From the IMG/VR virus record IMGVR_UViG_3300045538_000426, positions 58,970 through 122,969 of that record: DNA of 64,000 bases; one strand, 5' to 3'. The notes beneath the pieces were generated by a model, which was given only the letters and a program-made list of their open reading frames with translations, was not told the DNA's origin and did not search any database. A program made the translations under genes and the position numbers. Positions 46,219 to 57,371 of the stretch are shown here, piece by piece (position 1 is the first letter of the stretch; each line of letters begins with the position of its first letter). Source of the stretch: a virus.

Positions 46219-46292
46219 GCGGGTATGATGTAATGGTAGCCTATAACTTTGCCAAAGTTGATGCGAGGGTTCGATTCCCTCTACCCGCTCCA
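46219..46292 (+). tRNA. tRNA-Gly(GCC)
   Basis: Cloverleaf, loop TTGCCAA, encoded CCA. Confidence 0.95.
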
Positions 46293-46303
46293 GTAAATTT
46301 AAT

Positions 46304-46378
46304 GGGAGTATAGCTCAGAGGAAGAGCAGGTCCTTTACACGGACAAGGTCGGGATTTCAAAATTCTCTACTCCTACCA
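46304..46378 (+). tRNA. tRNA-Val(TAC)
   Basis: Loop TTTACAC, CCA; atypical T stem. Confidence 0.85.
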
Positions 46379-46474
46379 TTTCAAAAAAAGTAAGGGTTCG
46401 ATTCCCCTGTTCGTCAATGGCCGCTAAATGAAAATAGCCAGTGTAGTTTATGGAGAACGTTTTTGAAATTAAAT

Positions 46475-46551
46475 GGCCTCGTCGTCTACGAATGGATATA
46501 GGATTCTGGATTCTCAATCCGGAGAACTCGGTTCGACTCCGAGCGGGGCTA
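46475..46551 (+). tRNA. tRNA-Glu(CTC)
   Basis: ctgga-TTCTCAA-tccgg; no CCA. Confidence 0.9.
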
Positions 46552-46859
46552 CAGTAGTTAAGGCAAAGTATCCTTTATAATCCTACGCCACACGTACTGT
46601 GGATATGGAAACTTGACAGCTGGAGAGAAAGCACCAATTTAAAAACACCGTCTCTGCATGGAGACGTGAGATATGCCACACACGGGCGATAGTAGTCGGT
46701 TTACGATATGAACAAAATTTTGACTGTAATGGTCACTATTCAAAAGCCGTATAAACTCCATCAATTTAAATCACGGAAGTTAGGGTTCGAGGTCCTTGGG
46801 TCTTCTTGTAGGGAAGACACTTAATGTAAACGGCAGCATAACGTGGTTTGAATATTTTT

Positions 46860-46934
46860 GGGGTGCTGGTGATAATGGTAGCACAGTAGCTTTGCAAGCT
46901 TCGGGTAAGGGTTCGATTCCCTTGCGCTCCACCA
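46860..46934 (+). tRNA. tRNA-Ala(TGC)
   Basis: G3-U70 pair, loop TTTGCAA, CCA. Confidence 0.92.
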
Positions 46935-46936
46935 AT

Positions 46937-47009
46937 CGGTTCGTAGGATAATGGTTATTCCGCCTGCTTTGGGAGCAGGATATTGTGAGTTCGAGTCTCA
47001 CCGAGCCGA
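46937..47009 (+). tRNA. tRNA-Pro(TGG)
   Basis: cctgc-TTTGGGA-gcagg, C1-G72, A73. Confidence 0.92.
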
Positions 47010-47032
47010 CCCGTGTTAGTAGTGTAAATAAA

Positions 47033-47103
47033 CAGTCATAGGTGTTTCGGTAGCATGCAAGTTCTGGAAACTTGGGGGATCCGTTCGACTCGGATATGGC
47101 TGA
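47033..47103 (+). tRNA. tRNA-Pro(TGG), atypical C33/A37
   Basis: cagtcat/atggctg acceptor, caagt-TCTGGAA-acttg, T arm atccg-TTCGACT-cggat. Confidence 0.75.
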
Positions 47104-47172
47104 CAGCGTAGCGCCGGGTTGGATATTGCTCCAGCGGTGATGTGTTAGTGTTAACACCCGGCGGTCACGTAT

Positions 47173-47246
47173 GCTCAGGTGATGTAACTGGAAAACATCC
47201 GGGTTTTAGAAGCCTGGTTTTGTGGGTTCAACTCCCACCTTGAGCA
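47173..47246 (+). tRNA. tRNA-Leu(TAG), short variable loop
   Basis: cgggt-TTTAGAA-gcctg, 5-nt variable region, A73. Confidence 0.8.
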
Positions 47247-47269
47247 CCTTAATTCAGCTGAATTTTAAT

Positions 47270-47347
47270 GGTCACGTAGCCCAATTGGCAGGAGGCAACA
47301 GTTTCAAAAACTGTACAGTGTCGGTTCAAATCCGACCGTGACCACCA
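47270..47347 (+). tRNA. tRNA-Leu(CAA), short variable loop
   Basis: acagt-TTCAAAA-actgt, CCA. Confidence 0.85.
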
Positions 47348-47408
47348 CAGCCCAAAGGCCATTCTTCCTTCGTTTTATACGAATAGAATCTTTGGTGTGT
47401 TTCAAAAT

Positions 47409-47481
47409 GCGGATGTAGCTCAATTGGCAGAGCGCTTGCCTTCCAAGCAGGCTGTTGTGGGTTCAACTCCCATCATCCGCT
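47409..47481 (+). tRNA. tRNA-Gly(TCC)
   Basis: cttgc-CTTCCAA-gcagg, U73. Confidence 0.93.
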
Positions 47482-47492
47482 CAGATAAATTT

Positions 47493-47583
47493 GGTCGATG
47501 TTCCCTATGGCCGTCTGTAAAACGGTTGCATAATAATAAATAGGGCGGACATGCGAGAGGTTCGACTCCTTCATTGACCACCA
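47493..47583 (+). tRNA. D-armless tRNA-Tyr(GTA)-like RNA
   Basis: 7-bp acceptor + ACCA, gccgt-CTGTAAA-acggt, T loop TTCGACT; no D stem. Confidence 0.65.
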
Positions 47584-47678
47584 AACATCACGCTCACCCT
47601 GTATTACACAGCCTATAGCTAGGGCCATATAATGGTGTATTAACCGATTGGATCGGACGTGCCTCTGATGTCTTTGAT

Positions 47679-47764
47679 TGCGGAGACAAGCCGTGGGATG
47701 CTAACTGCGCTCATAACGCAGGCGACGAAAGTCTCTATGGACGGTTCGACTCCGTCCTCCGCTA
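47679..47764 (+). tRNA. tRNA-Met(CAT), initiator-like, long variable arm
   Basis: U1xU72 mismatch, A11-U24, ctgcg-CTCATAA-cgcag, variable hairpin gac-gaaa-gtc. Confidence 0.75.
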
Positions 47765-47931
47765 CATTTTAAACAGGCCAGCGTTTCGGGCTAGCCTGGT
47801 GAAACGAGATAGATTTCTGGAGTAGGGCACGAAACAGAAGAACATCGGTGAAATCCTCGGGAAACCATTTCTTGACTCTTACGGAGATTGATGTAAGATG
47901 TTCAATGTCGGTTGTGAGAGACTCTTTAATT

Positions 47932-48022
47932 GGTTCCATGATGTAATGGTAACATGGCAGACTTATAATCTGTATATGCTCTAGATTGGAGCGCTATCTC
48001 GGTTCGACTCCGGGTGGAACCA
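47932..48022 (+). tRNA. tRNA-Ile(TAT) with long variable arm
   Basis: gcaga-CTTATAA-tctgt; 24-nt extra arm gctct-agatt-ggagc. Confidence 0.8.
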
Positions 48023-48488
48023 CCTTCGAATGATTTGTGACTTTTAGACACATTTCAATAAACTCTTGGGGAGTCATATTAAATTTGGATTGATTGACTA
48101 TTCTTTTGGTTATTGCCAAGTTAGAGAGAGAACTTTCTCCTCCCCTAGAAGCAGGTAGAATATGGTCAAGACTAAAATCATCCTTATCCAATAGATTGAT
48201 TGGTTCTCCAGTCAAATAACATTTTGGCGATGGTCCCAATTTCTTCTTTAAATCCAAAAGAGAGAAATCTACAACTACATTTTTTCGACTTGACCGTAGA
48301 AATTCTTTCCGTTTATAAAACAGAGGATCCGTGGTCTGTTTCTTTTTTGTATATTTATCTTGATTCCTCTTCCTATTTGGATTAAGGTTGTAGTGAACGG
48401 TCCACTCAGAACAACCTAATGTTCTCGCTATTTGTTTATATGTTTTTCCCGACGAGTGAAGTTCTTTAATTTGAGATTGATAATTCAT
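47994..48488 (-). CDS. HTH + HNH homing-type endonuclease
   Basis: KTYKQIARTLGCSEWTVHY; CYLTG...SLDHILPASRGG...N. Confidence 0.85.
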   Translation of the reverse strand: MNYQSQIKELHSSGKTYKQIARTLGCSEWTVHYNLNPNRKRNQDKYTKKKQTTDPLFYKRKEFLRSSRKNVVVDFSLLDLKKKLGPSPKCYLTGEPINLLDKDDFSLDHILPASRGGESSLSNLAITKRIVNQSKFNMTPQEFIEMCLKVTNHSKVVPPGVEPR

Positions 48489-48558
48489 GATGTAAATTAC
48501 TTGTTGTAATATACATATCAAAAATAATAGAAATAGTTAGATATTTCGATAATAAAAT

Positions 48559-48640
48559 GGCCCTGTGACCTAATTGCGAATTGGCACAGCATACAGACTT
48601 AAAATCTGGAGTTTTACGAGTTCGAGTCTCGTCAGGGCTA
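48559..48640 (+). tRNA. tRNA-Leu(TAA), short variable loop
   Basis: Loop CTTAAAA, 6-nt variable region, enlarged D loop. Confidence 0.8.
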
Positions 48641-48652
48641 CCGTTTTCTTAT

Positions 48653-48766
48653 GCCTGTTATGCAGTGAGTTCGATTCTCATACATTCCATAGATGGGATG
48701 GCTGGTGCAGAAATGCTTTGGTTACGTGTTAGATCAACATAATCGGTTCAATTCCGATAATAGGTT
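48653..48766 (+). ncRNA. tRNA-shell RNA with two T-loop arms, no anticodon arm
   Basis: gcctgtt/aataggt acceptor; gtgag-TTCGATT-ctcat and atcgg-TTCAATT-ccgat. Confidence 0.55.
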
Positions 48767-49042
48767 CAGTTGAGTGTATATGACATAATGAATAACGTTT
48801 ATTTGTGTCAAAATGTGGAATAGATTGGGCACGAAACTTCGAATTGAGCTGACCAATCACACTTGACTTTTAGAATCTACGTTGGGCCGCACGGTTTTGG
48901 TTCCGATGTAAGCAGAGGCCGCGGGTGGTGTCCTCGGATGGGTTTAAGTCCCAGACCACCAAATTTAGAATTTCTAAACGAAATATACGATTCGCTGTGT
49001 AGGCTGAATTGTTCGTGTAGAAAAAACACAAAAAAAAAACAT

Positions 49043-49420
49043 ATGAATACATTAGTAAAATACAACGGCGTAACCTCAGACTTGTCAGACATCGTGGATA
49101 GATTTCACGATTGTTTTTGGTCAGATCCTGTGTTTCAACTAAATAGAAACTGGAGACCAACCGATGTATCGGAGACGGACAAATCTGTGGTTGTTGAGGT
49201 GGAACTCCCCCGCTTTAAACGAGAAGATGTAAAGGTGGAAGTTTCCAGCGGAAAATTGTCAATCATAGCAAAAAATCAAAAATCCTCCTACCTAAGAGAA
49301 TTTAGTTATACTGGGTTGGATCTTGACTTAGCTGACGTAAAGCTTCAAGACGGTGTTCTAAGAATTGAAATCCCAAAGATTTCTTCCGAGAAGACCAAGA
49401 AATATCTTGAAGTCAAATAA
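49043..49420 (+). CDS. small heat-shock protein (Hsp20)
   Basis: DVSETDKSVVVEVELPRF, ADVKLQDGVLRIEIPK. Confidence 0.9.
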   Translation: MNTLVKYNGVTSDLSDIVDRFHDCFWSDPVFQLNRNWRPTDVSETDKSVVVEVELPRFKREDVKVEVSSGKLSIIAKNQKSSYLREFSYTGLDLDLADVKLQDGVLRIEIPKISSEKTKKYLEVK

Positions 49421-49426
49421 CAATAT

Positions 49427-49445
49427 GGACCGGTCTTTCCGGTCC
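49427..49445 (+). terminator. GC-rich hairpin after hsp20
   Basis: ggaccgg-tcttt-ccggtcc; no clear U-tract. Confidence 0.45.
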
Positions 49446-49449
49446 TAAT

Positions 49450-49524
49450 GGGAATGTAACTCAACGGTAGAGTGTTGCGGTGACAACGCAAAAGTAGTTG
49501 GTTCGACTCCAACCATTCCCACCA
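49450..49524 (+). tRNA. tRNA-Val(GAC)
   Basis: ttgcg-GTGACAA-cgcaa, CCA. Confidence 0.92.
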
Positions 49525-49611
49525 GATTGAAGAAAATGGTGCTAGATTTGAGAGGTAAACGTAACCCGCTCTTCCCCGATAGGGAAAAATTTCAAATCAC
49601 TTCAACATTTT

Positions 49612-49772
49612 GTAGATGTAGCGGTGGAGAAGTGCCACTAGAACATGAGTAGTTCGTAAATAGGTGTGTGATGTTCCCGACAGTGGGGAAAAACGGAAAC
49701 GGCCGTAACAACGGTGTAGCCGCCCGCGATAGTCAAAAATACGCCATGGAGGTTCAATCCTTCCCATCTACA
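49612..49772 (+). ncRNA. 161-nt tRNA-shell RNA with inserted structured domain
   Basis: Perfect gtagatg/catctac acceptor, A73, T arm ggagg-TTCAATC-cttcc. Confidence 0.6.
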
Positions 49773-49782
49773 ATCCCTTTAT

Positions 49783-49860
49783 GGTCACGTAGCCCAATTG
49801 GCAGGAGGCGCAACATTGAGCGTGTTGACAGTGTGAGTTCAAATCTCACCGTGACTACCA
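49783..49860 (+). tRNA. tRNA-Leu(GAG), short variable loop
   Basis: caaca-TTGAGCG-tgttg; paralogue of 47270; CCA. Confidence 0.85.
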
Positions 49861-49937
49861 CGATGCAGAGGTCGGTAATTACAGTAATGGATTCTTTGTA
49901 AAGGCCTTCAAAAGAAACCAACCGTAGGCAACAATTT

Positions 49938-50245
49938 GAAAACGTGGTGCGTGATAAAACGCAATGGGAACTAGACCACAACGATCCGGGACGAAAGAAA
50001 AGGATTGATAAATTATAGTTCTCATGTCGATTGAGACGGTGCGAAAATCCGATGGTGTCGCGACAGACATATTGAACATACCAAAATCGATTGTAAGTGT
50101 TCAGTCTATGGGGAACCAAGCGGTGAGGAGATAGGGGTGGATGGCAAGCTGTGACGGCCGACCTCATTACTATCCAACAATCACAAGGCACCCATAACGC
50201 AGGGCCAGTCTTAGACATATGCGGGTCCGAATCCCGCCGTTTTCA
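49938..50245 (+). ncRNA. about 308-nt RNA: tRNA-Met-like shell with large insertion
   Basis: gaaaacg/cgttttc acceptor; 3' half cataacgcagg + variable hairpin + T arm, paralogous to the 47679 tRNA. Confidence 0.5.
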
Positions 50246-50282
50246 TCATTGACTTTAGAAAATCACACTATATCATAGATTC

Positions 50283-50993
50283 ATGTCATACAACAAAAAC
50301 AACGTAGGTACAGCGATGCACACGGTTCGGAATGTGAACCAACTTTCCTCGGAACATACTCCTCAAATGACAGTTGAGGAAAGGTTAAGAGAAGGGGCTG
50401 TTACACACGTTCGATTGAAAGCCAGAAATTCTACTGATGCAAGTATTTTAGAATCTCTGTCATCGAAATTGGTAAAATCTGTATCAGATGAACAAAAAAA
50501 GGAAAATATCCACAGATGGTTCAAGGACAAAATTAAGAATTCTTATTACGATTTTTTCAAATCAGACGAGGGCAGATTGGATATTAAAATTTGGTGTCAT
50601 AACTGTCAGACTTACATGAAAAGTTCCGAATTAAATTGGGACGTTGAAGGAAACGCCTACTGTAAAAAATACCCAATATGTTATTCACAGTATTACGAAT
50701 TTGATTTGTGGTTAATTTCACAAATTTGGAATATTCCACTTAAAGTAAAGTATTCAAATGAAGAAGAACAATACTTTGAACTTTTGAAGAGACAAGACCA
50801 GATTGAAAAGAACATATCGTTCCTTTACCGTAAAGGTATAGAAAATCAACGAATGAAAGATTATAGATTAGAATCTAAGGAAGTGAGAAAAAAGATAAAG
50901 GAATTTGAGAACATCATAGCAGACTCCTTACACGAACAGTTTCCTCCTGGCGCTCCTGAGGTAGAGATGTTGTCTTCATTACAACATTTTTAA
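50283..50993 (+). CDS. hypothetical protein with zinc ribbon
   Basis: CHNC...CKKYPIC; promoter TTGACT-N16-TATCAT upstream. Confidence 0.7.
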   Translation: MSYNKNNVGTAMHTVRNVNQLSSEHTPQMTVEERLREGAVTHVRLKARNSTDASILESLSSKLVKSVSDEQKKENIHRWFKDKIKNSYYDFFKSDEGRLDIKIWCHNCQTYMKSSELNWDVEGNAYCKKYPICYSQYYEFDLWLISQIWNIPLKVKYSNEEEQYFELLKRQDQIEKNISFLYRKGIENQRMKDYRLESKEVRKKIKEFENIIADSLHEQFPPGAPEVEMLSSLQHF

Positions 50994-51071
50994 TTGACCT
51001 TCAATTTCCGACTCCTCTGGGATCATAAAGACTATATGCAGCCATCTAAGCGATACAGGTCGGAACAATTT

Positions 51072-51100
51072 GATTAGAAGGAAACTTCTAATCGATTTTA
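51072..51100 (+). terminator. GAAA-capped hairpin, terminator-like
   Basis: gattagaag-gaaa-cttctaatc then gatttta. Confidence 0.5.
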
Positions 51101-51101
51101 T

Positions 51102-51169
51102 AGCGTGGCTACTGGGTAGTGCGGAAACTCCAAATCTCTGCTTCGTCGGTTCGATTCCGACTCACGCTG
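51102..51169 (+). tRNA. tRNA-Trp(CCA), minimal D arm
   Basis: Loop CTCCAAA, G73, T arm gtcgg-TTCGATT-ccgac. Confidence 0.8.
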
Positions 51170-51191
51170 CCGTGTCAAAGTAGTTTATAAT

Positions 51192-51275
51192 TGGTATGTG
51201 GCGTAATGGCAGCCGCGCTAGTTTTAGAAGCTAGTGGAGAAATCCGTGCAGGTTCAAGTCCTGTCATACCAACCA
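51192..51275 (+). tRNA. tRNA-Leu(TAG), normal long variable arm
   Basis: ctagt-TTTAGAA-gctag, gga-gaaa-tcc arm, CCA. Confidence 0.92.
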
Positions 51276-51276
51276 T

Positions 51277-51352
51277 CGGGGTATAATGTCAATGGTAGAC
51301 GGTCTGGTCCGGAGCCAGAAGGTTGCGAGTTCAAGTCCCGCTACCCCGACCA
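51277..51352 (+). tRNA. tRNA-Pro(CGG), atypical C33/A37
   Basis: tctgg-TCCGGAG-ccaga, C1-G72, A73, CCA. Confidence 0.8.
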
Positions 51353-51495
51353 GTGTTAGTTGGGTATTCATCAAATTAAAAACTCAACTGCATGTTTAAT
51401 TGGATTTAGAGCGAAAACGTAAATCTGGGTCGTGGTGCTGAACCCGGTTATAACCAAACCAGCCACGGGGTGTCTATTTCCTCTAAAAATAGAAT

Positions 51496-51567
51496 GGCCC
51501 ATTCGTCTAGTAGTTAGGACGGATCCCTTTCAAGAATTAGAAGACGGAGCGTAACCGTCATGGGCTA
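51496..51567 (+). tRNA. tRNA-Glu(TTC), non-canonical T loop
   Basis: Loop CTTTCAA; T arm gacgg-AGCGTAA-ccgtc. Confidence 0.8.
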
Positions 51568-51568
51568 C

Positions 51569-51893
51569 AGTTTAACACGGTCGATCTATAGCGGGTGTAG
51601 AAATACATCTGAGGAAGTTCGCGCCACCAAAGCAGATGATTGGGAGAATATGTTCACTCATTAGAGTGATAAAATAGACGGTGTATAATCGGAGTGAAAG
51701 TCTCTGAGGGATGGTCGGTTACAAAATAATCCAATACACGGCCGTTAGTTCCGACCACATATTCATTAATACCACATATTAGGTGCAAGCCAAACAGAAC
51801 CGAGGGTAGTGCTTCCCGTTATGGTAGGTTCGGGTTGGCGCATAGTCAAATTATAGAATAAAACAGAAGCGCGGCTACATGATACGTTAAACT
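51569..51893 (+). ncRNA. rnpB: RNase P RNA (catalytic subunit, A-type, lacking P18)
   Basis: GAGGAAGTTCGCGC and AACAGAAGCGCGGCTAC form P4; P1, P2, P3, P5 (cacc/ggtg+CAAG), P6 (aagca/tgctt), P15 and P16 all pair; GTGAAAG S-domain motif. Confidence 0.9.
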
Positions 51894-51896
51894 AAT

Positions 51897-51973
51897 GGTC
51901 AGGTGATGTAATTGGAAAACATCTTTGTCTCAGAAACAGAGTTTTGTGGGTTCAACTCCCATCTTGACCACCA
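51897..51973 (+). tRNA. tRNA-Leu(CAG), short variable loop
   Basis: tttgt-CTCAGAA-acaga; paralogue of 47173; CCA. Confidence 0.85.
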
Positions 51974-51974
51974 T

Positions 51975-52142
51975 ATGAAATCGAAACAAGACAGAATCAA
52001 ACATGAGACTGAATACGTCGCATTTCTTGAGAAACGGTTAGCAAGCAAAAATTTTCATAATAACTCGACCAACGGGGAAATTGAAACTACCAAGGTAAAG
52101 TTAAAGAAAGCAAAGTTGGTTTTGAGAATGTTGGCGAATTAA
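51975..52142 (+). CDS. small basic hypothetical protein
   Basis: ATG 1 nt after tRNA CCA; MKSKQDRIKHE... Confidence 0.6.
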   Translation: MKSKQDRIKHETEYVAFLEKRLASKNFHNNSTNGEIETTKVKLKKAKLVLRMLAN

Positions 52143-52144
52143 AT

Positions 52145-52232
52145 GGGCGGTTATCCCGTAGGGGTAGCGGTACGCGCTGTAAACGCGTTGTCTTAACGGA
52201 CTCGGGTGGTTCAACTCCATCACCGCCCACCA
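52145..52232 (+). tRNA. tRNA-Tyr(GTA)
   Basis: acgcg-CTGTAAA-cgcgt, long variable arm, CCA. Confidence 0.93.
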
Positions 52233-52453
52233 TGAAAAATAAAAACAAGGTTTTGTCGGAAATGCTCGATAAATACAACGCCAATAGAGAAGAACACCAA
52301 CGAGTTCATCTTTGGACATTGGGTTTGATGACTGCTGGCTTGATTGGCAAGACTATTAACACTCGTCGTCCGGTGGATAGTCCTCGGATGAAAGCGAATA
52401 TAGCTAATTCACATATGAAAACATTGGAAGGAACGGTGGTTTTAAATAAATGA
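52232..52453 (+). CDS. hypothetical protein
   Basis: ATG shares its A with the tRNA-Tyr CCA. Confidence 0.55.
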   Translation: MKNKNKVLSEMLDKYNANREEHQRVHLWTLGLMTAGLIGKTINTRRPVDSPRMKANIANSHMKTLEGTVVLNK

Positions 52454-52468
52454 TTACTATTTATAACC

Positions 52469-53032
52469 ATGAGACAATTTAAATCATGGTTATTTATAGG
52501 ATTGGTTGTATGTCTATCGTTACTCCCCATCGGATGTGGGAATGGTGAGAGCAACTCAACCAAAGTCGCTTTACCACCACCGCCGACAAAAACATTCAGT
52601 TCGACGGAAATTTACAACTCAATGGCGAGTATTGGAATACTCACAGAGAAAGCGGTAATATCCGATGGTCTGTATGTTCTAGCTAAACGTGAATGGGTGG
52701 AAAAAGAGTTTTCATCAGGTTTATCCGCTTTTCAATTTCAGTTTGGAATAAACAACTGGAACGCAGAATCCAATGATTGTGATAAATTTTCAGGGGCTGC
52801 TTCGTTTTATTTAAGATGGTTGAACCATTCTTCTCCGAATCGAAATGTAAAGGCTGCCTTAGCAGCCGGGGAAGTTTACTATCGTACAGACCAGGGGCAA
52901 AATCACGCCATCAATCTTTTCATATTGGAGAAGGACGGTGTATTGACGCCCAGCTTCTACGAACCGCAGACTCGTCGTTTCGTGACATTATCACAGTCGG
53001 AAATATTTTCGGTGTTTTTTTGGAAATTATGA
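52469..53032 (+). CDS. lipoprotein with papain/transglutaminase-like (MOA C-terminal-like) domain
   Basis: PIG|C lipobox-like; DCDKF...HAIN...FYEPQ. Confidence 0.65.
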   Translation: MRQFKSWLFIGLVVCLSLLPIGCGNGESNSTKVALPPPPTKTFSSTEIYNSMASIGILTEKAVISDGLYVLAKREWVEKEFSSGLSAFQFQFGINNWNAESNDCDKFSGAASFYLRWLNHSSPNRNVKAALAAGEVYYRTDQGQNHAINLFILEKDGVLTPSFYEPQTRRFVTLSQSEIFSVFFWKL

Positions 53033-53151
53033 AAAAACTAACTCTCATTCTCATGTTCTTCGTCGTTATGTTAGGTCAAGCGTGTAAGACAGTGGAAACG
53101 ATAAAACCGACAATACAGAAACCCCCGGTTAGGTTTACATTAAACGATTGA
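53029..53151 (+). CDS. small lipoprotein (40 aa)
   Basis: MKKLTLILMFFVVMLGQA|C. Confidence 0.55.
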   Translation: MKKLTLILMFFVVMLGQACKTVETIKPTIQKPPVRFTLND

Positions 53152-53181
53152 CTCATTAGATTTCCGTGATATCATCCTTCC

Positions 53182-53550
53182 ATGGGTGAACAAGAAACTT
53201 TGGACGAAATCTTCGGAGAAACTCCGATTTGGAAGAATACCTACAAGATAAAATGGTGTGAATTGTGTCGGACGGCTATCATTGTTTGTCCTGTTTGTAA
53301 AAACACTTCGTGCAACGGCAGCGGATGTAAAGAGTGCAACGATGAGTTTGATTTATTCAATAAGTCTAAGTCGTGTGTCGAAGATTATCTCACCGACAGT
53401 GAAATCGAAGCTTACAACAAAGCTATCTACATAAAACAATTCATCCTCAAGTCGCTTGGTAGAAATGAAACGGAAATTGATTTCAAACGGATGAAGGACG
53501 CGGGCGAACTTTCGGAGTTGACAGAGAAGATGTTTTCCGATAGACTATAG
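53182..53550 (+). CDS. Cys-rich hypothetical protein
   Basis: CELC, CPVC, CNGSGCKEC; promoter TTGACT-N16-TATCAT. Confidence 0.7.
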   Translation: MGEQETLDEIFGETPIWKNTYKIKWCELCRTAIIVCPVCKNTSCNGSGCKECNDEFDLFNKSKSCVEDYLTDSEIEAYNKAIYIKQFILKSLGRNETEIDFKRMKDAGELSELTEKMFSDRL

Positions 53551-53558
53551 AAAGTAAT

Positions 53559-53648
53559 GGGAGTATATTGGCGGTGTTTCCTAAACACTTAGTGCATAAT
53601 TGGATAGCCGGAAGGCGGATGTGGGTTCGAGTCCCTCTACTCCCACCA
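53559..53648 (+). tRNA. aberrant tRNA(CAT)-like RNA
   Basis: Perfect gggagta/tactccc + ACCA, T loop TTCGAGT, 7-bp D-like hairpin, weak anticodon stem, loop TGCATAA. Confidence 0.55.
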
Positions 53649-53654
53649 AATAAC

Positions 53655-53852
53655 ATGAACATGGGACGAATGTTGGACGAAGGTAATTACACTCTCGACG
53701 AAGAGTTATTTATAGCAAATAACTGTTCCATTGAATTGTGTGAATCGTGTGGAGATTATTTCGCAATTCATCCCGACTATTGTTATGTCGGTAGAAACAA
53801 TTTTGTTGAATTGACATTTAGTGGACAATTTTGTTGTCAGAAATGTAAGTGA
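53655..53852 (+). CDS. small zinc-binding hypothetical protein
   Basis: CESC...CQKC; ATG 6 nt after tRNA CCA. Confidence 0.55.
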   Translation: MNMGRMLDEGNYTLDEELFIANNCSIELCESCGDYFAIHPDYCYVGRNNFVELTFSGQFCCQKCK

Positions 53853-53857
53853 TAATT

Positions 53858-53942
53858 GGATGATAAACCCGAAAGGTTTGGGAACTGCCTCGAAAACAGA
53901 TTGCGCCCTAAAAAGCGTGGGCTTCGATTGCTCTGTCATCCG
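53858..53942 (+). tRNA. tRNA-Ser(CGA)
   Basis: Loop CTCGAAA, long variable arm, G73. Confidence 0.8.
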
Positions 53943-53990
53943 CAGAAAACAAATCATTGACTCCTTATAGAAATCGAATACTATCAAACA

Positions 53991-54512
53991 ATGAATGTAA
54001 GAGATCATTTGAAGGATTTGAGTGTAGATGCAATCAAGAACTACTGTTCGGAAAATTGTGTCGATGCAGCGGTGGCAATGATGCACACTGAAGGTGATTT
54101 CAATCTTTCTAACGTATTTCGAACAACGAACTTCTTTGGAATTCGAGAGGCTTATTATATCGCAGGTCAGAAGCAGTGGGATAGACGCGGAGCAGTTGGT
54201 GTCCACCATTATACACCTGTCAATTACTGCAAGACGGTGGAGGATTTTTGGGCAATAATCACAGAAAAGGGTTATACCCCGGTGGCCATTGAGAATAACA
54301 CTAATTTCGATTGTCAGAACATTTTTACTTATACTTGGCCGGAGAAGCCAGTCATTATTTTAGGAGAAGAACAGACGGGTATTCCCACTGAAGTCTTGAC
54401 TAACTGCAAGAGTGTGGTTACAATTCCCGCGTTCGGTTCAGTCCGTTCTCTTAATGTGGGTAGTGCAGCAGCAATTGCTATTGCAATGTATAGGAATCAA
54501 ATTGGAAGGTAA
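53991..54512 (+). CDS. TrmH/SpoU-family (SPOUT) RNA 2'-O-methyltransferase
   Basis: NLSNVFRT, IILGEEQTGIP, IPAFGSVRSLNVGSAAAI. Confidence 0.9.
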   Translation: MNVRDHLKDLSVDAIKNYCSENCVDAAVAMMHTEGDFNLSNVFRTTNFFGIREAYYIAGQKQWDRRGAVGVHHYTPVNYCKTVEDFWAIITEKGYTPVAIENNTNFDCQNIFTYTWPEKPVIILGEEQTGIPTEVLTNCKSVVTIPAFGSVRSLNVGSAAAIAIAMYRNQIGR

Positions 54513-54589
54513 AACCGATAGGTTTGGTCAGTGATTGGAAATCACTTGGGCGCCTAAAAAACGCTGAGTTTCGAATACTCTGCCTTCCG
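54504..54589 (+). tRNA. tRNA-Ser(GGA)
   Basis: agtga-TTGGAAA-tcact, G73; 5' end overlaps the last 9 nt of the methylase gene. Confidence 0.85.
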
Positions 54590-54595
54590 CATCAT

Positions 54596-54814
54596 TCACT
54601 TCATTATCGAAATCATGTGAGTTCCGGTCAATGAAGGAGTGTAATAATTGTTTGTATTTCCACGTTTCTCATACAGTGGAATTGTCCGATTGCCGTCCTT
54701 GTCAGTATAACCTTTCCGTATAAGTTTATAATCTTCATTATTTACGCGGACGTTATATGGGTCAGAACAAGCCGTTAGTAAAGCCAAAGTCAAGATATAA
54801 AACATGTTTCTCAT
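54596..54814 (-). CDS. small lipoprotein
   Basis: MRNMFYILTLALLTA|C. Confidence 0.6.
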   Translation of the reverse strand: MRNMFYILTLALLTACSDPYNVRVNNEDYKLIRKGYTDKDGNRTIPLYEKRGNTNNYYTPSLTGTHMISIMK

Positions 54815-54859
54815 GACAATAACTATTGAAGTAATGATTGAATGTGATAAGATATAAAC

Positions 54860-55369
54860 ATGCAAACATTTCTACCTCATGCGGATTTTTACGAATCGGC
54901 CAAGTGCCTAGACGACAAGCGTTTAGGAAAGCAACGAGTTGAAGGGTATCAGATTCTAAAATCCCTATCAATCGGGCCGTATCAGAGATTTCACGATAAT
55001 AGTTGGACAAGTTGTGATGAAACGACTTACAAGTTGTTAAAATCAATGAAGATAAAGAAATTGGTCAGAAAGACACCGTGGTATAATCACCCGGCCACAA
55101 AAATGTGGCGCGGCAACGAACGTAAGTTACGAGAGTATACCGAGGTTGTATGCAACGTGTGGGTCAGTCGTGGGTTTAAAGATACTATTGTAGAAAAACT
55201 CAAAAGTATTTCATGTCAATTTTCAAAAAATCTCTCATATCCCAGCTGGCTTGGAGATGTATCATTTCACGCGTCACATCGATCTAATTTGTTAAGAAAG
55301 AATAAAGGGTGGTATTCTAAGTTTAATTGGTCGGAACGAGACGACCTACCATATGTTTGGCCACAATAA
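54860..55369 (+). CDS. pyrimidine-dimer glycosylase-related (DenV/MSMEG_6728-like) protein
   Basis: MQTFLP...LDDKRLGKQRVE...HPATKMW...HASHRSNLLRK. Confidence 0.8.
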   Translation: MQTFLPHADFYESAKCLDDKRLGKQRVEGYQILKSLSIGPYQRFHDNSWTSCDETTYKLLKSMKIKKLVRKTPWYNHPATKMWRGNERKLREYTEVVCNVWVSRGFKDTIVEKLKSISCQFSKNLSYPSWLGDVSFHASHRSNLLRKNKGWYSKFNWSERDDLPYVWPQ

Positions 55370-55415
55370 TGTAGTTTATCAACGGTGATTTCTAAAATCA
55401 AATATAGTTATTAAT

Positions 55416-55676
55416 ATGGTTGATAGAGATGGTATAAAACAACTCAGCGTCTATCTTGATCTGTGTGGTGAACGACAGGTTTTGCTCGAAACCGTCTGGT
55501 TGGCATTTCGTTATAAAGACACTCACAAGGGATGGGACGTAAATAAGTGCTTTGAAGAAGCTCTTTGGAATGTCATGCTTGCCGAAGCCAAACGTGAGGT
55601 TAAAGTTGACCTAAAAGCCACCGTGGATAAAATTAACAGTATTTCTTCAATGGGTGCTGTCAAGAAATCCGGTTGA
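55416..55676 (+). CDS. hypothetical protein
   Basis: 86-aa ORF. Confidence 0.6.
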   Translation: MVDRDGIKQLSVYLDLCGERQVLLETVWLAFRYKDTHKGWDVNKCFEEALWNVMLAEAKREVKVDLKATVDKINSISSMGAVKKSG

Positions 55677-55700
55677 CAGTTTTAGAATCCGGTGTATAGT
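55673..55700 (+). promoter_or_regulatory. sigma70-type promoter upstream of the large ncRNA
   Basis: TTGACA-N16-TATAGT. Confidence 0.75.
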
Positions 55701-55885
55701 TATTTCAAGGTTAGTTGAGTGTAAGCGAAAATCCTTAAATTAAAAACTCGACGGTGTGATAAATACCTAAAGTTATCCGTTTGCCAGTAACGACAATGCA
55801 GCAAGATTTGTGTGGTATTGACTTGACCACACCTTTTTATCGAATTTATGTCAAAATTCGACGCTTTGTAGATTGTTCTTTGTAG

Positions 55886-56692
55886 TAAGTAAAATTTGGG
55901 GGCCTGACCCCGTGAGATAACCCGTCGTAAGGCGGTAAAAGCAGAAACTCCCTAACGAGACTGCGCCGTAGCAATACGGACACTCAGGCAACTGACAAGA
56001 TCAGTGTCTTTCACTCAAAAGGTGGAAGTATGTCTGAAGCTGGATTGGGAAATGGTGACTGAGGGTAACACTGTAAGTCATCTACTAACGGCACCGCCGA
56101 GCTCTACCAGTTCCTTAACGGGAACAGCCAAGAATAAGATCTAAGTCAAACAAATAGATACAAGCCCGCAAGCAAGTGTTTATCTGTAGAAAGATAGAAA
56201 GTGGCCAGGGTAACCAGGACATAATCTTGAAATTCGGTGAAGTATCCGCAAGAGAAACACAAATGGTGTGTGGTATATTGGTTCCCAAAAGGAATTGATG
56301 TCACAAGTAACGCACGTCATTGTTAGGTGCATATTATATCCTTGGTAGATATTACATATTATACAAAAAGCAAAGTCGTTACTTGTGTTCGTCGAAAAGA
56401 ACGTAACTCTGAGGCCGTAAGGTAACTCAGACAACGAAGCGCTCGCAAGGTGTTAGTTGTTGATCCGAGTTTGGACGTGGTCCGCAAGACCTAATTGCTC
56501 GCAAGGCAACCGTTTGAATAGAGGTTGATTAGATGAACATTAAAGATGAAAAGCCTCATCTCTAAAAAGGCCGTTCTGTCAAATACAGACATAAACCGTA
56601 AGGTTGTGGATGTGGATATATCGGGAAAGCAGCCCGCAAGGTTGTAATAATCCGATTAAAGGTTGACACGAAACACTGTAGTCTCAGGTTTC
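55886..56692 (+). ncRNA. GOLLD-like giant structured RNA (boundaries approximate)
   Basis: About 0.8 kb without a credible ORF, more than 10 short GNRA-capped hairpins, set among tRNAs; segments gtgtggtatattggttcccaaaagg and ctgtagtctcagg resemble GOLLD as I recall it. Confidence 0.7.
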
Positions 56693-56756
56693 ATTTTAAA
56701 AATTAGTCTCTTTTAGGGTTTAAAACACTATTTATAGTTAAAGGAACATTAAACCA

Positions 56757-57164
56757 ATGCCAAACGTATATAGTATTAAAACATGTATAAATTGTGGAAT
56801 CTCTAAGAGAAGTAATGGAAAAAAGTTTTGTGGACCGAAGTGTCAACATGATTTCAATTACAAAGAAAAGATAAAATTGTGGTTAGACGGAAAGCACGAT
56901 GGGATGCGGGGAAAAACATCCACGGCACATTGGATTAAAAGATATATCACCGAAGTACGTGGACATCAATGTGAATGTTGTAAAATTAAAGAGTGGATGG
57001 ATAGGTCGATATCTTTAGATTTAGAACATAAAGACGGAAATTTTAAAAACAATAAAATTGACAATCTTGGTCTAATTTGTCCGAACTGTCACAGTCAGAC
57101 GGATACATATAAAGGTAGAAACAAAAAAGGAAGGCCTCGTTCTAAGTATTATAGAGGATTGTAA
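56757..57164 (+). CDS. HNH endonuclease
   Basis: CINC...FCGPKC; LEHKDGNFKNNKIDNLGLICPNCH. Confidence 0.9.
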   Translation: MPNVYSIKTCINCGISKRSNGKKFCGPKCQHDFNYKEKIKLWLDGKHDGMRGKTSTAHWIKRYITEVRGHQCECCKIKEWMDRSISLDLEHKDGNFKNNKIDNLGLICPNCHSQTDTYKGRNKKGRPRSKYYRGL

Positions 57165-57165
57165 T

Positions 57166-57252
57166 GGATAGGTGGCTGAGTGGATTAAAGCGGTGCTCTT
57201 GAAAAGCACAGGGGCCTAAAAACCCCCGGGGGTTCGAATCCCTCTCTATCCT
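57166..57252 (+). tRNA. tRNA-Ser(TGA)
   Basis: gtgct-CTTGAAA-agcac, long variable arm, U73. Confidence 0.9.
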
Positions 57253-57279
57253 CCGTAGTTAGGTAAGTGGTGTAAATAT

Positions 57280-57368
57280 GGAACGGTGGCCGAGTCTGGC
57301 TTATGGCGGAAGTTTGCTAAACTTCTGAGGCCTAAAAACCTCCACAGGTTCGAATCCTGTTCGTTCCG
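57280..57368 (+). tRNA. tRNA-Ser(GCT)
   Basis: gaagt-TTGCTAA-acttc, long variable arm, G73. Confidence 0.92.
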
Positions 57369-57371
57369 CAG

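Follow-up and report, generated by a model that had tools for sequence, protein, structure and literature searches.

A putative RNase P RNA gene in a phage tRNA array and its viral family

The locus

The DNA analysed here, called the window, makes up the final 64 kb of an IMG/VR virus record of 122,969 bp, whose completeness CheckV estimates at 41%. On its + strand, at 51569–51893, lies what reads as a gene of about 325 nt for a divergent RNase P RNA, set between two tRNA genes of a large uncultured phage. RNase P RNA is the ribozyme that trims the 5' end of new tRNAs, and to our knowledge it is regarded as a universal cellular ribozyme. The assignment of the whole gene is based on a match to the Rfam model RF00373, on a homologue in a related contig (G001), and on covariation within a family of viral RNAs.

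The upstream neighbour is tRNA-Glu(UUC), which lacks an encoded CCA and occupies 51496–51567 (+; ARAGORN, and RF00005 at 40.4 bits). Its 3' end, at 51567/68, leaves a gap of 1–2 nt. Downstream, tRNA-Leu(CAG) occupies 51897–51973 (+; ARAGORN and Rfam); its 5' end at 51897 leaves 3–4 nt after the RNase P RNA. These gaps agree with a preliminary description of the locus, in which the RNase P RNA had been placed between the same two tRNA genes. That description had also called the stretch free of open reading frames (ORFs), and indeed only two short ones, of 34 and 44 aa, touch 51569–51893. No + strand promoter adjoining the RNase P RNA was found.

The gene is part of a tRNA island at 46219–57369 (+), which holds 20 tRNAs called by ARAGORN and one detected by Rfam only (51277–51349), all of them on the + strand. 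The island also contains genes for Hsp20 (48863–49420), a SpoU methylase (53991–54512), and a T4 endonuclease V-like glycosylase (54860–55369). A full-length GOLLD RNA (RF02032, 216.9 bits, E 5e-60) lies in the same island, 4.4 kb downstream of the RNase P RNA, at 56261–56690 (+).

The genes of the contig include those for a tape measure protein, tail proteins, a DnaB-type helicase, a DNA polymerase, a ribonucleotide reductase, and NAMPT. By this gene content the contig is that of a phage. Neither the window's contig nor G001 yielded a gene for RnpA (PF00825), Rpp29, or Pop5, both records being less than 50% complete; for RnpA this extends to the whole 123-kb contig what the preliminary description had noted for the window. 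The neighbouring small ORFs have no match in Pfam or PHROG and therefore offer no candidate for a phage cofactor. A search for relatives with a neighbouring 236-aa ORF found none.

The catalytic domain

The catalytic domain is complete and has a type A layout, with P1–P5, P15–P17, the P6 pseudoknot, a bulged U in P4, and the conserved regions CR-I, CR-IV, and CR-V. The helices P1–P6, P15, and P16 and the strands GAGGAAG and AACAGAA, all of which had been proposed in the preliminary description, were found where it had placed them. All features of the RNA described here are on the + strand.

P1 closes the molecule by pairing GUUUAAC (51570–51576) with GUUAAAC (51886–51892), to which the pair A51569–U51893 can be added. 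P2 is formed by UCUAUAG (51585–51591) and UUAUAGA (51851–51857). It is followed by P3, a hairpin of 7 bp with a GAAA tetraloop (GGGUGUA-GAAA-UACAUCU, 51593–51610).

The next segment, 51611–51624, joins CR-I (GAGGAAG, 51611–17) to the 5' strand of P4 (AGUUCGCGC, 51616–24). Its counterpart at 51862–51876 consists of CR-V (AACAGAA, 51862–68) and the 3' strand of P4 (GCGCGGCU, 51869–76). Together the two strands make eight pairs and leave one U bulged. Either U51618 or U51619 is the bulged one, the latter being suggested by likeness to archaeal GAGGAAGCUC, and it corresponds to the universal metal-binding U. The active site lies in P4, and the role of the bulged U there has been described (PMC4919922).

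P5 pairs CACC (51625–51628) with GGUG (51782–51785) and is followed by CAAG. The P6 pseudoknot is formed by AAGCA (51630–51634) and UGCUU (51810–51814), the latter within the loop of P17. J5/15, with the sequence GCAAG, lies at 51785–51789 and is identified by the conservation of its GCAA. It leads into the P15-P16-P17 arm (51789–51839), built from P15 (GCCAA/UUGGC), P16 (GAACC/GGUUC), and P17 (GGG/CCC). The 3' side of the arm's internal loop reads GGG(U) at 51832–35, in the position of the bacterial GGU that binds CCA.

CR-IV, UAGUCAAAU, occupies 51843–51851 and is supported by both the sequence and the Infernal alignment. Four conserved single strands of RNase P RNA, which is Rfam clan CL00002, are all present: GAGGAA (CR-I), AGNNNAAU (CR-IV), ACAGAA (CR-V), and GCAAG in J5/15. 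The P18 hairpin is missing, since only 11 nt separate P15 and P2, which agrees with the earlier impression that P18 and P19 are absent. A hairpin does stand at the P18 position in some other members of the family. A C-domain can be catalytic by itself (PMC5839562).

The specificity domain

The specificity domain (S-domain), already called divergent in the preliminary description, is non-canonical. P8, P9, P13, and P14 are absent, as is CR-II in its known form; these are the canonical elements that read the tRNA elbow.

What is present begins with a P7-like stem, whose 5' strand lies at 51635–51643. It consists of GAUG/UAUU (3' strand 51777–80) and UGG/CCA (3' strand 51772–74), with a 2x2 internal loop between them. 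One further helix, spanning 51646–51764, pairs GAAUAUGU (51646–53) with ACAUAUUC (51757–64). The joiner AUUAAUA (51765–51771), with the CCAC that follows it, forms the motif (C)GUUAAUACCAC, a strand that the alignments show to be conserved across the family. This strand resembles what we take to be bacterial CR-III, GGUAAACUCCAC in E. coli, a likeness offered as a lead only.

Inside the S-domain helix is an expansion of 103 nt (51654–51756) that is unique to the window phage and resembles none of the other sequences compared in this analysis. Its internal fold is not significant by itself, with a z-score of -1.2.

Detection by covariance models and sequence searches

Infernal aligned RF00373, the model of archaeal RNase P RNA, to 51577–51887 over model positions 1–288 of 288, with a score of 36.4 bits. 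This corresponds to an E-value of 8.1e-9 over the 651 nt searched, and to one of 3.7e-10 per genome. In the S-domain the alignment leaves inserts of 50 nt and 44 nt unaligned. The score is well below the Rfam gathering score of 84 bits for this model, a threshold that is the curators' score cut-off and no structural feature of the RNA. Because of this shortfall, default Rfam annotation of the window reports no RNase P RNA.

The preliminary description had named RF00010, RF00011, and RF00373 as the models by which its proposal could be checked. For RF00373 the match proved significant but sub-threshold, while RF00010 has no candidate anywhere on the contig and RF00011 does not match the window copy. 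The same is true of RF02357.

The RNA had no blastn match among 50,697 phage records. Three early pattern scans of IMG/VR, in which the gap range or the CR-V base was set too strictly, gave only chance or coding matches, and all five matches from one pattern scan of metagenomes were due to chance.

A homologue in a related phage

With the DNA polymerase as query, 16 related virus contigs were collected, and the records of 12 of them were searched whole. G001 (173,817 bp; polymerase 79% identical) is the only one of the 12 with an RF00373 match, at 34 bits. RF02357 scores 15.8 bits on the same copy. No copy was found in the contigs of the other 11, more distant relatives, all of which are 6–45% fragments.

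As in the window, the G001 copy lies directly 3' of tRNA-Glu(UUC). In both contigs the RNase P RNA is about 54–61 kb from the polymerase gene, within a syntenic tRNA island bordered on either side by phage genes. Identity between the two contigs across this island is mostly 68–90%. The RNAs themselves differ at two positions in their 5' 85 nt, and their 3' 132 nt are 94% identical.

Several of the differences preserve pairing. In P5, CACC/GGUG of the window becomes CACU/AGUG in G001, and in P16, GAACC/GGUUC becomes GAGCC/GGCUC. Three more compensatory pairs are seen in the S-domain helix, where GAAUAUGU/ACAUAUUC corresponds to GAAUCGGC/GCCGAUUC in G001. Within that helix G001 has about 35 nt, folded as two small hairpins, whereas the window has 103 nt; the specificity half of G001 is about 70 nt shorter than that of the window. 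Comparison of the pair could reveal the role of the expansion.

The island of G001 shares a further small element. A 55-aa lysine-rich ORF at 51975–52142 (+) in the window exactly fills the gap between tRNA-Leu, which ends at 51973, and tRNA-Tyr, which starts at 52145. It has about 76% nucleotide identity in G001 and no match in Pfam or PHROG.

A family of viral RNase P RNAs

IMG/VR was scanned with a pattern of CR-IV, CR-V, and those bases of the P4 3' strand that are constant, which returned 54 loci. In 48 of them GAGGAAG[UC]UC lies upstream, and the bases next to it complete 8 of 8 pairs with the P4 3' strand at the four positions (NNNN) that the pattern left free. Among these 48 copies of P4 the four positions hold many different tetramers. 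Pairing that holds over such varied tetramers is direct covariation evidence for P4.

Members of the family occur in no fewer than 48 virus contigs and in a cultured phage. The gene is recurrent, and the window phage is not its sole carrier. The window has the family signature: CR-I GAGGAAG[UC]UC, the P4 3' strand NNNNGGCUA, the S-domain core P7-GA-helix-GUUANUACC, and a cluster of phage tRNAs on the same strand. Family-wide, that core runs from the P7-like stem through a GA dinucleotide and a single helix to the strand (C)GUUANUACC(AC). Two marks notably distinguish the window copy within the family: its large, unique expansion of the specificity domain and the presence of a tRNA on both flanks. 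The spacing from CR-I to CR-IV ranges from 116 to 242 nt in the family, and that of the window, 232 nt, is among the three longest.

Transfer RNA genes are present at 45 of 51 family loci, in every case on the strand of the RNA. At 18 of the 51, no more than 60 nt lie between P4 and the start of a same-strand tRNA.

Covariation was counted on MAFFT alignments only, which take no account of structure, with the fold of the window projected on them. Over an alignment of 35 distinct copies, 73.5% of cells are paired, compared with 32–42% for slid partners, and none of 500 shuffles reached this value. P4 is paired in 99.6% of cells, with four pairs changed on both sides, and P5 in 99.3%. P2 is paired in 91%, with both sides changed in six of seven pairs, and P6 in 83%, with both sides changed in all five. 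The values for P15, P3, and P16 are 87%, 79%, and 74%. The GCAA of J5/15, which was not imposed by any search pattern, is invariant in 35 of 35.

Alignment of the 35 copies is poor over P1, P7, P17, and the S-domain helix, which are 44–49% paired there. These helices were tested again on the subgroup of seven sequences closest to the window. There the fold pairs 87.2% of cells, compared with 32–39% for slid partners, and 36 of 66 pairs are changed on both sides. For P1 the paired fraction in this subgroup is 78%, with six of its seven pairs doubly changed, and for the P7-like stem it is 89%, with two pairs doubly changed. The values for P17, the S-domain helix, P3, and P6 are 95%, 81%, 88%, and 100%.

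The cultured member is Stenotrophomonas phage vB_SmaS-DLP_6 (DLP6). Its copy, at 105774–106022 of KU682439.2, scores 54.7 bits with RF00010 (E 3e-17) under full scoring. It is unannotated and lies 3 nt before tRNA-Arg. When cmscan is run with its usual filters it reports nothing at this place, despite the 54.7 bits obtained under full scoring; this loss at the filters may be one reason why phage RNase P RNAs go unannotated.

Two members depart from the family pattern. In L202:879-1336 (+), which belongs to the close subgroup and has a tRNA directly after it, CR-V reads ACAAAA where all others have ACAGAA, a change at a base that is normally universal. In L105:1537-1748 (-), CR-I reads GAGGAAGCUAGGAC and four of the eight P4 pairs can form in the usual register, so that a shift or a shortening of its P4 is possible. 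Further GAGGAAGYUC sites, seen in related contigs, are not RNase P RNAs.

Comparison with known systems

Bacterial type A RNase P RNA (E. coli M1 RNA, rnpB; RF00010) shares with the window copy P1–P5, a P4 with bulged U, CR-I, CR-IV, CR-V, and the GCAAG of J5/15. Also shared are the P15-P16-P17 arm, the P6 pseudoknot, and a loop of the GGU type; a common role in tRNA 5' maturation is inferred from these. The bacterial RNA is longer, at about 377 nt compared with about 325 nt. It has P8, P9, P13, P14, and P18, none of which is present in the window copy, and for P13 and P14 nothing alignable remains. The upper pairs of P4 are A-U/G-C/U-G in the window (GAGGAAGUUC) and A-U/A-U/G-C in bacterial type A (GAGGAAAGUCC). 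Unlike the bacterial gene, that of the window is encoded by a virus and lies inside a tRNA operon.

Archaeal RNase P RNA, of which the DPANN and Nitrososphaeria forms are the closest, gives the best-scoring Rfam model for the window copy (RF00373). The archaeal forms share with it the absence of P18, the P4 variant GAGGAAG[CU]UC...GGCUA, and CR-IV UAGNNAAAU. Other features differ. The S-domain motifs CAGAAACGA ... GAUGAAACGG, present in archaeal copies from metagenome-assembled genomes (MAGs), are absent from the phage RNA. Conversely, P16, P17, and P6 are missing from the small DPANN RNAs but retained in the phage RNA.

The CR-IV/CR-V pattern matched 82 stretches in prokaryote genomes, about 50 of which are the cells' own RNase P RNAs in MAGs of Micrarchaeota, Aenigmatarchaeota, Nitrososphaeria, and Marsarchaeota. 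These have the P4 variant GAGGAAG[CU]UC...GGCUA instead of GAGGAAAGUCC...GGCUUA. Two bacterial MAGs, of Mycoplasmataceae (L147 and L161), have it as well. The upper pairs of the variant are A-U/G-C/Y-G in place of the usual A-U/A-U/G-C, and the geometry is the same. Because the other archaeal features differ and the Mycoplasmataceae MAGs carry the variant, the archaeal likeness is read as a common variant of P4 and as no proof of archaeal origin.

The DLP6 copy shares with the window CR-I GAGGAAGUUCGCG, the S-domain core, and a position directly before a tRNA in a phage tRNA cluster. Its CR-V and P4 3' strand, AACAGAAUCGCGGCUAC, differ from those of the window, AACAGAAGCGCGGCUAC, only in the first base of the P4 3' strand. 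At 249 nt, the DLP6 copy combines a P18-like hairpin with a tiny S-domain, and its match is to RF00010 and not to RF00373, whereas the window copy has the 103-nt S-domain expansion and no P18.

RNase P RNAs poor in S-domain exist in nature (PMC3579882). Among them is type T of the Thermoproteaceae (RF02357; PMC3579882), which is similar in being a natural RNA that works with most of its specificity domain removed. It belongs to a different lineage, and the window copy keeps and expands part of the S-domain.

The nearest published idea concerns theta ribozymes, which are HDV-like, adjoin phage tRNAs, and have been proposed to free phages from host tRNA-processing enzymes (PMC10879173). These too are phage-encoded ribozymes beside phage tRNA genes. 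They are small and self-cleaving, act on the 3' side of the tRNA, and have an unrelated fold, whereas the window RNA would be a trans-acting RNase P homologue concerned with the 5' side.

A full-text literature search, with subscription journals mostly outside its range, found no paper describing an RNase P RNA encoded by a phage or other virus. Neither a 2016 review of RNase P diversity nor a 2026 study of RNase P evolution mentions one.

Proposed function and alternative explanations

The evidence points to a real, conserved, phage-encoded RNase P RNA at 51569–51893 that probably cleaves the leaders of phage tRNAs, most likely with host RnpA; we give this reading a probability of roughly three in four. 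The claim that a phage encodes an RNase P RNA within its tRNA array, made in the preliminary description, is borne out by the covariance-model match, the syntenic homologue with its compensatory changes, the family of at least 48 contigs, and the phage nature of the contig. That the RNA is catalytic, and that it matures the odd tRNAs of the phage, is what we infer from sequence. The window RNA is best described as a new viral variant of a known ribozyme.

In the proposed mechanism the RNase P RNA would be transcribed within the phage tRNA precursor. Its release would fall to the enzymes that mature the flanking tRNA-Glu and tRNA-Leu, with P1 closing the ends of the RNA. As tRNA-Leu starts 4 nt past P1, the RNase P cut at the 5' end of tRNA-Leu would also make the 3' end of the ribozyme. 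The freed RNA would fold into its catalytic core and bind host RnpA through the conserved surface of P2-P3 together with CR-IV and CR-V. The hybrid enzyme would then remove the 5' leaders of the 20-plus tRNAs of the phage, and the phage RNA would add or protect RNase P capacity in the infected cell. Because the module that reads the tRNA elbow is reduced, the enzyme may be relaxed in the substrates that it accepts.

Tentatively, the phage ribozyme might instead be a private enzyme for tRNA maturation that needs no host RnpA or that works with a phage protein yet to be recognised. Through an S-domain remodelled in its own lineage, it would be retargeted to the phage's unusual tRNAs and tRNA-like RNAs, and the ribozyme would be the 5' leader of its own substrate, freed by cutting the tRNA after it. 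If this were true, phage translation could continue when host RNase P is depleted or attacked. It is unlikely that the RNA is a decoy or sponge, in which an RNase P-like fold captures host RnpA or pre-tRNAs and shuts down or redirects host tRNA maturation. Such a role would fit the conservation of the regions that contact RnpA (P2-P3, CR-IV, and CR-V) beside a reduced substrate-reading domain, and also the failure to find a phage protein cofactor. However, the most strongly conserved parts, namely the bulged U, ACAGAA, GCAAG, and the P6 pseudoknot, are catalytic ones and would be dispensable in a decoy, and the same-strand tRNA arrays, with the RNA directly before a tRNA in 18 of 51 loci, fit a role in processing.

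The archaeal model being the best Rfam match, and the P4 variant being common to the RNase P RNAs of about 50 MAGs of the four archaeal groups named above, one might suppose an archaeal virus whose archaeal-type RNA works with archaeal RNase P proteins. This is quite improbable: the S-domain motifs and the state of P16, P17, and P6 are reversed in the phage RNA, a family member occurs in DLP6, which infects a bacterium, the Mycoplasmataceae MAGs carry the P4 variant too, Rpp29 and Pop5 genes were not found, and the phage has genes for a DnaB-type helicase and a GOLLD RNA. A low score, the loss of several helices, and S-domains that differ strongly between two sister phages could all be expected of a decaying relic of a captured host rnpB that is now functionless. 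Yet the core is near-identical in two phages whose polymerases differ by 21%, and the compensatory changes that maintain every core helix in 35 diverged copies nearly refute a relic, which is thus very improbable. Host DNA or an assembly chimera misfiled as viral is hardly credible. IMG/VR does label G001 a 'provirus', but the two contigs place the gene at a similar distance from that of the polymerase, within a syntenic island flanked by phage genes, and no cellular-type full-length RNase P RNA gave a match. The preliminary description had named a host chromosome or a chimera as one finding that would overturn it; the contig is that of a phage by its gene content, and the locus is syntenic in G001.

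Significance

A virus-borne family of RNase P RNAs would add a ribozyme to the translation-related functions of large phages. With CR-I to CR-IV spacings from 116 to 242 nt, it would also provide dozens of natural trials of how far the RNase P fold can be reduced. Such genes are missed by standard annotation. The copy in the cultured phage DLP6 makes function directly testable.

Clues to hosts

A PVC host for the window phage, assumed in the preliminary description, is unsupported, as no evidence for any host was found. Phage-type mini copies of the RNA occur on four short contigs (L117, L173, L194, and L126) that are binned with MAGs of Roizmanbacteria, Saccharofermentanales, Planctomycetia, and Bacteroidetes. 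These contigs may be prophages or mis-binned phage contigs, and they could give clues to hosts.
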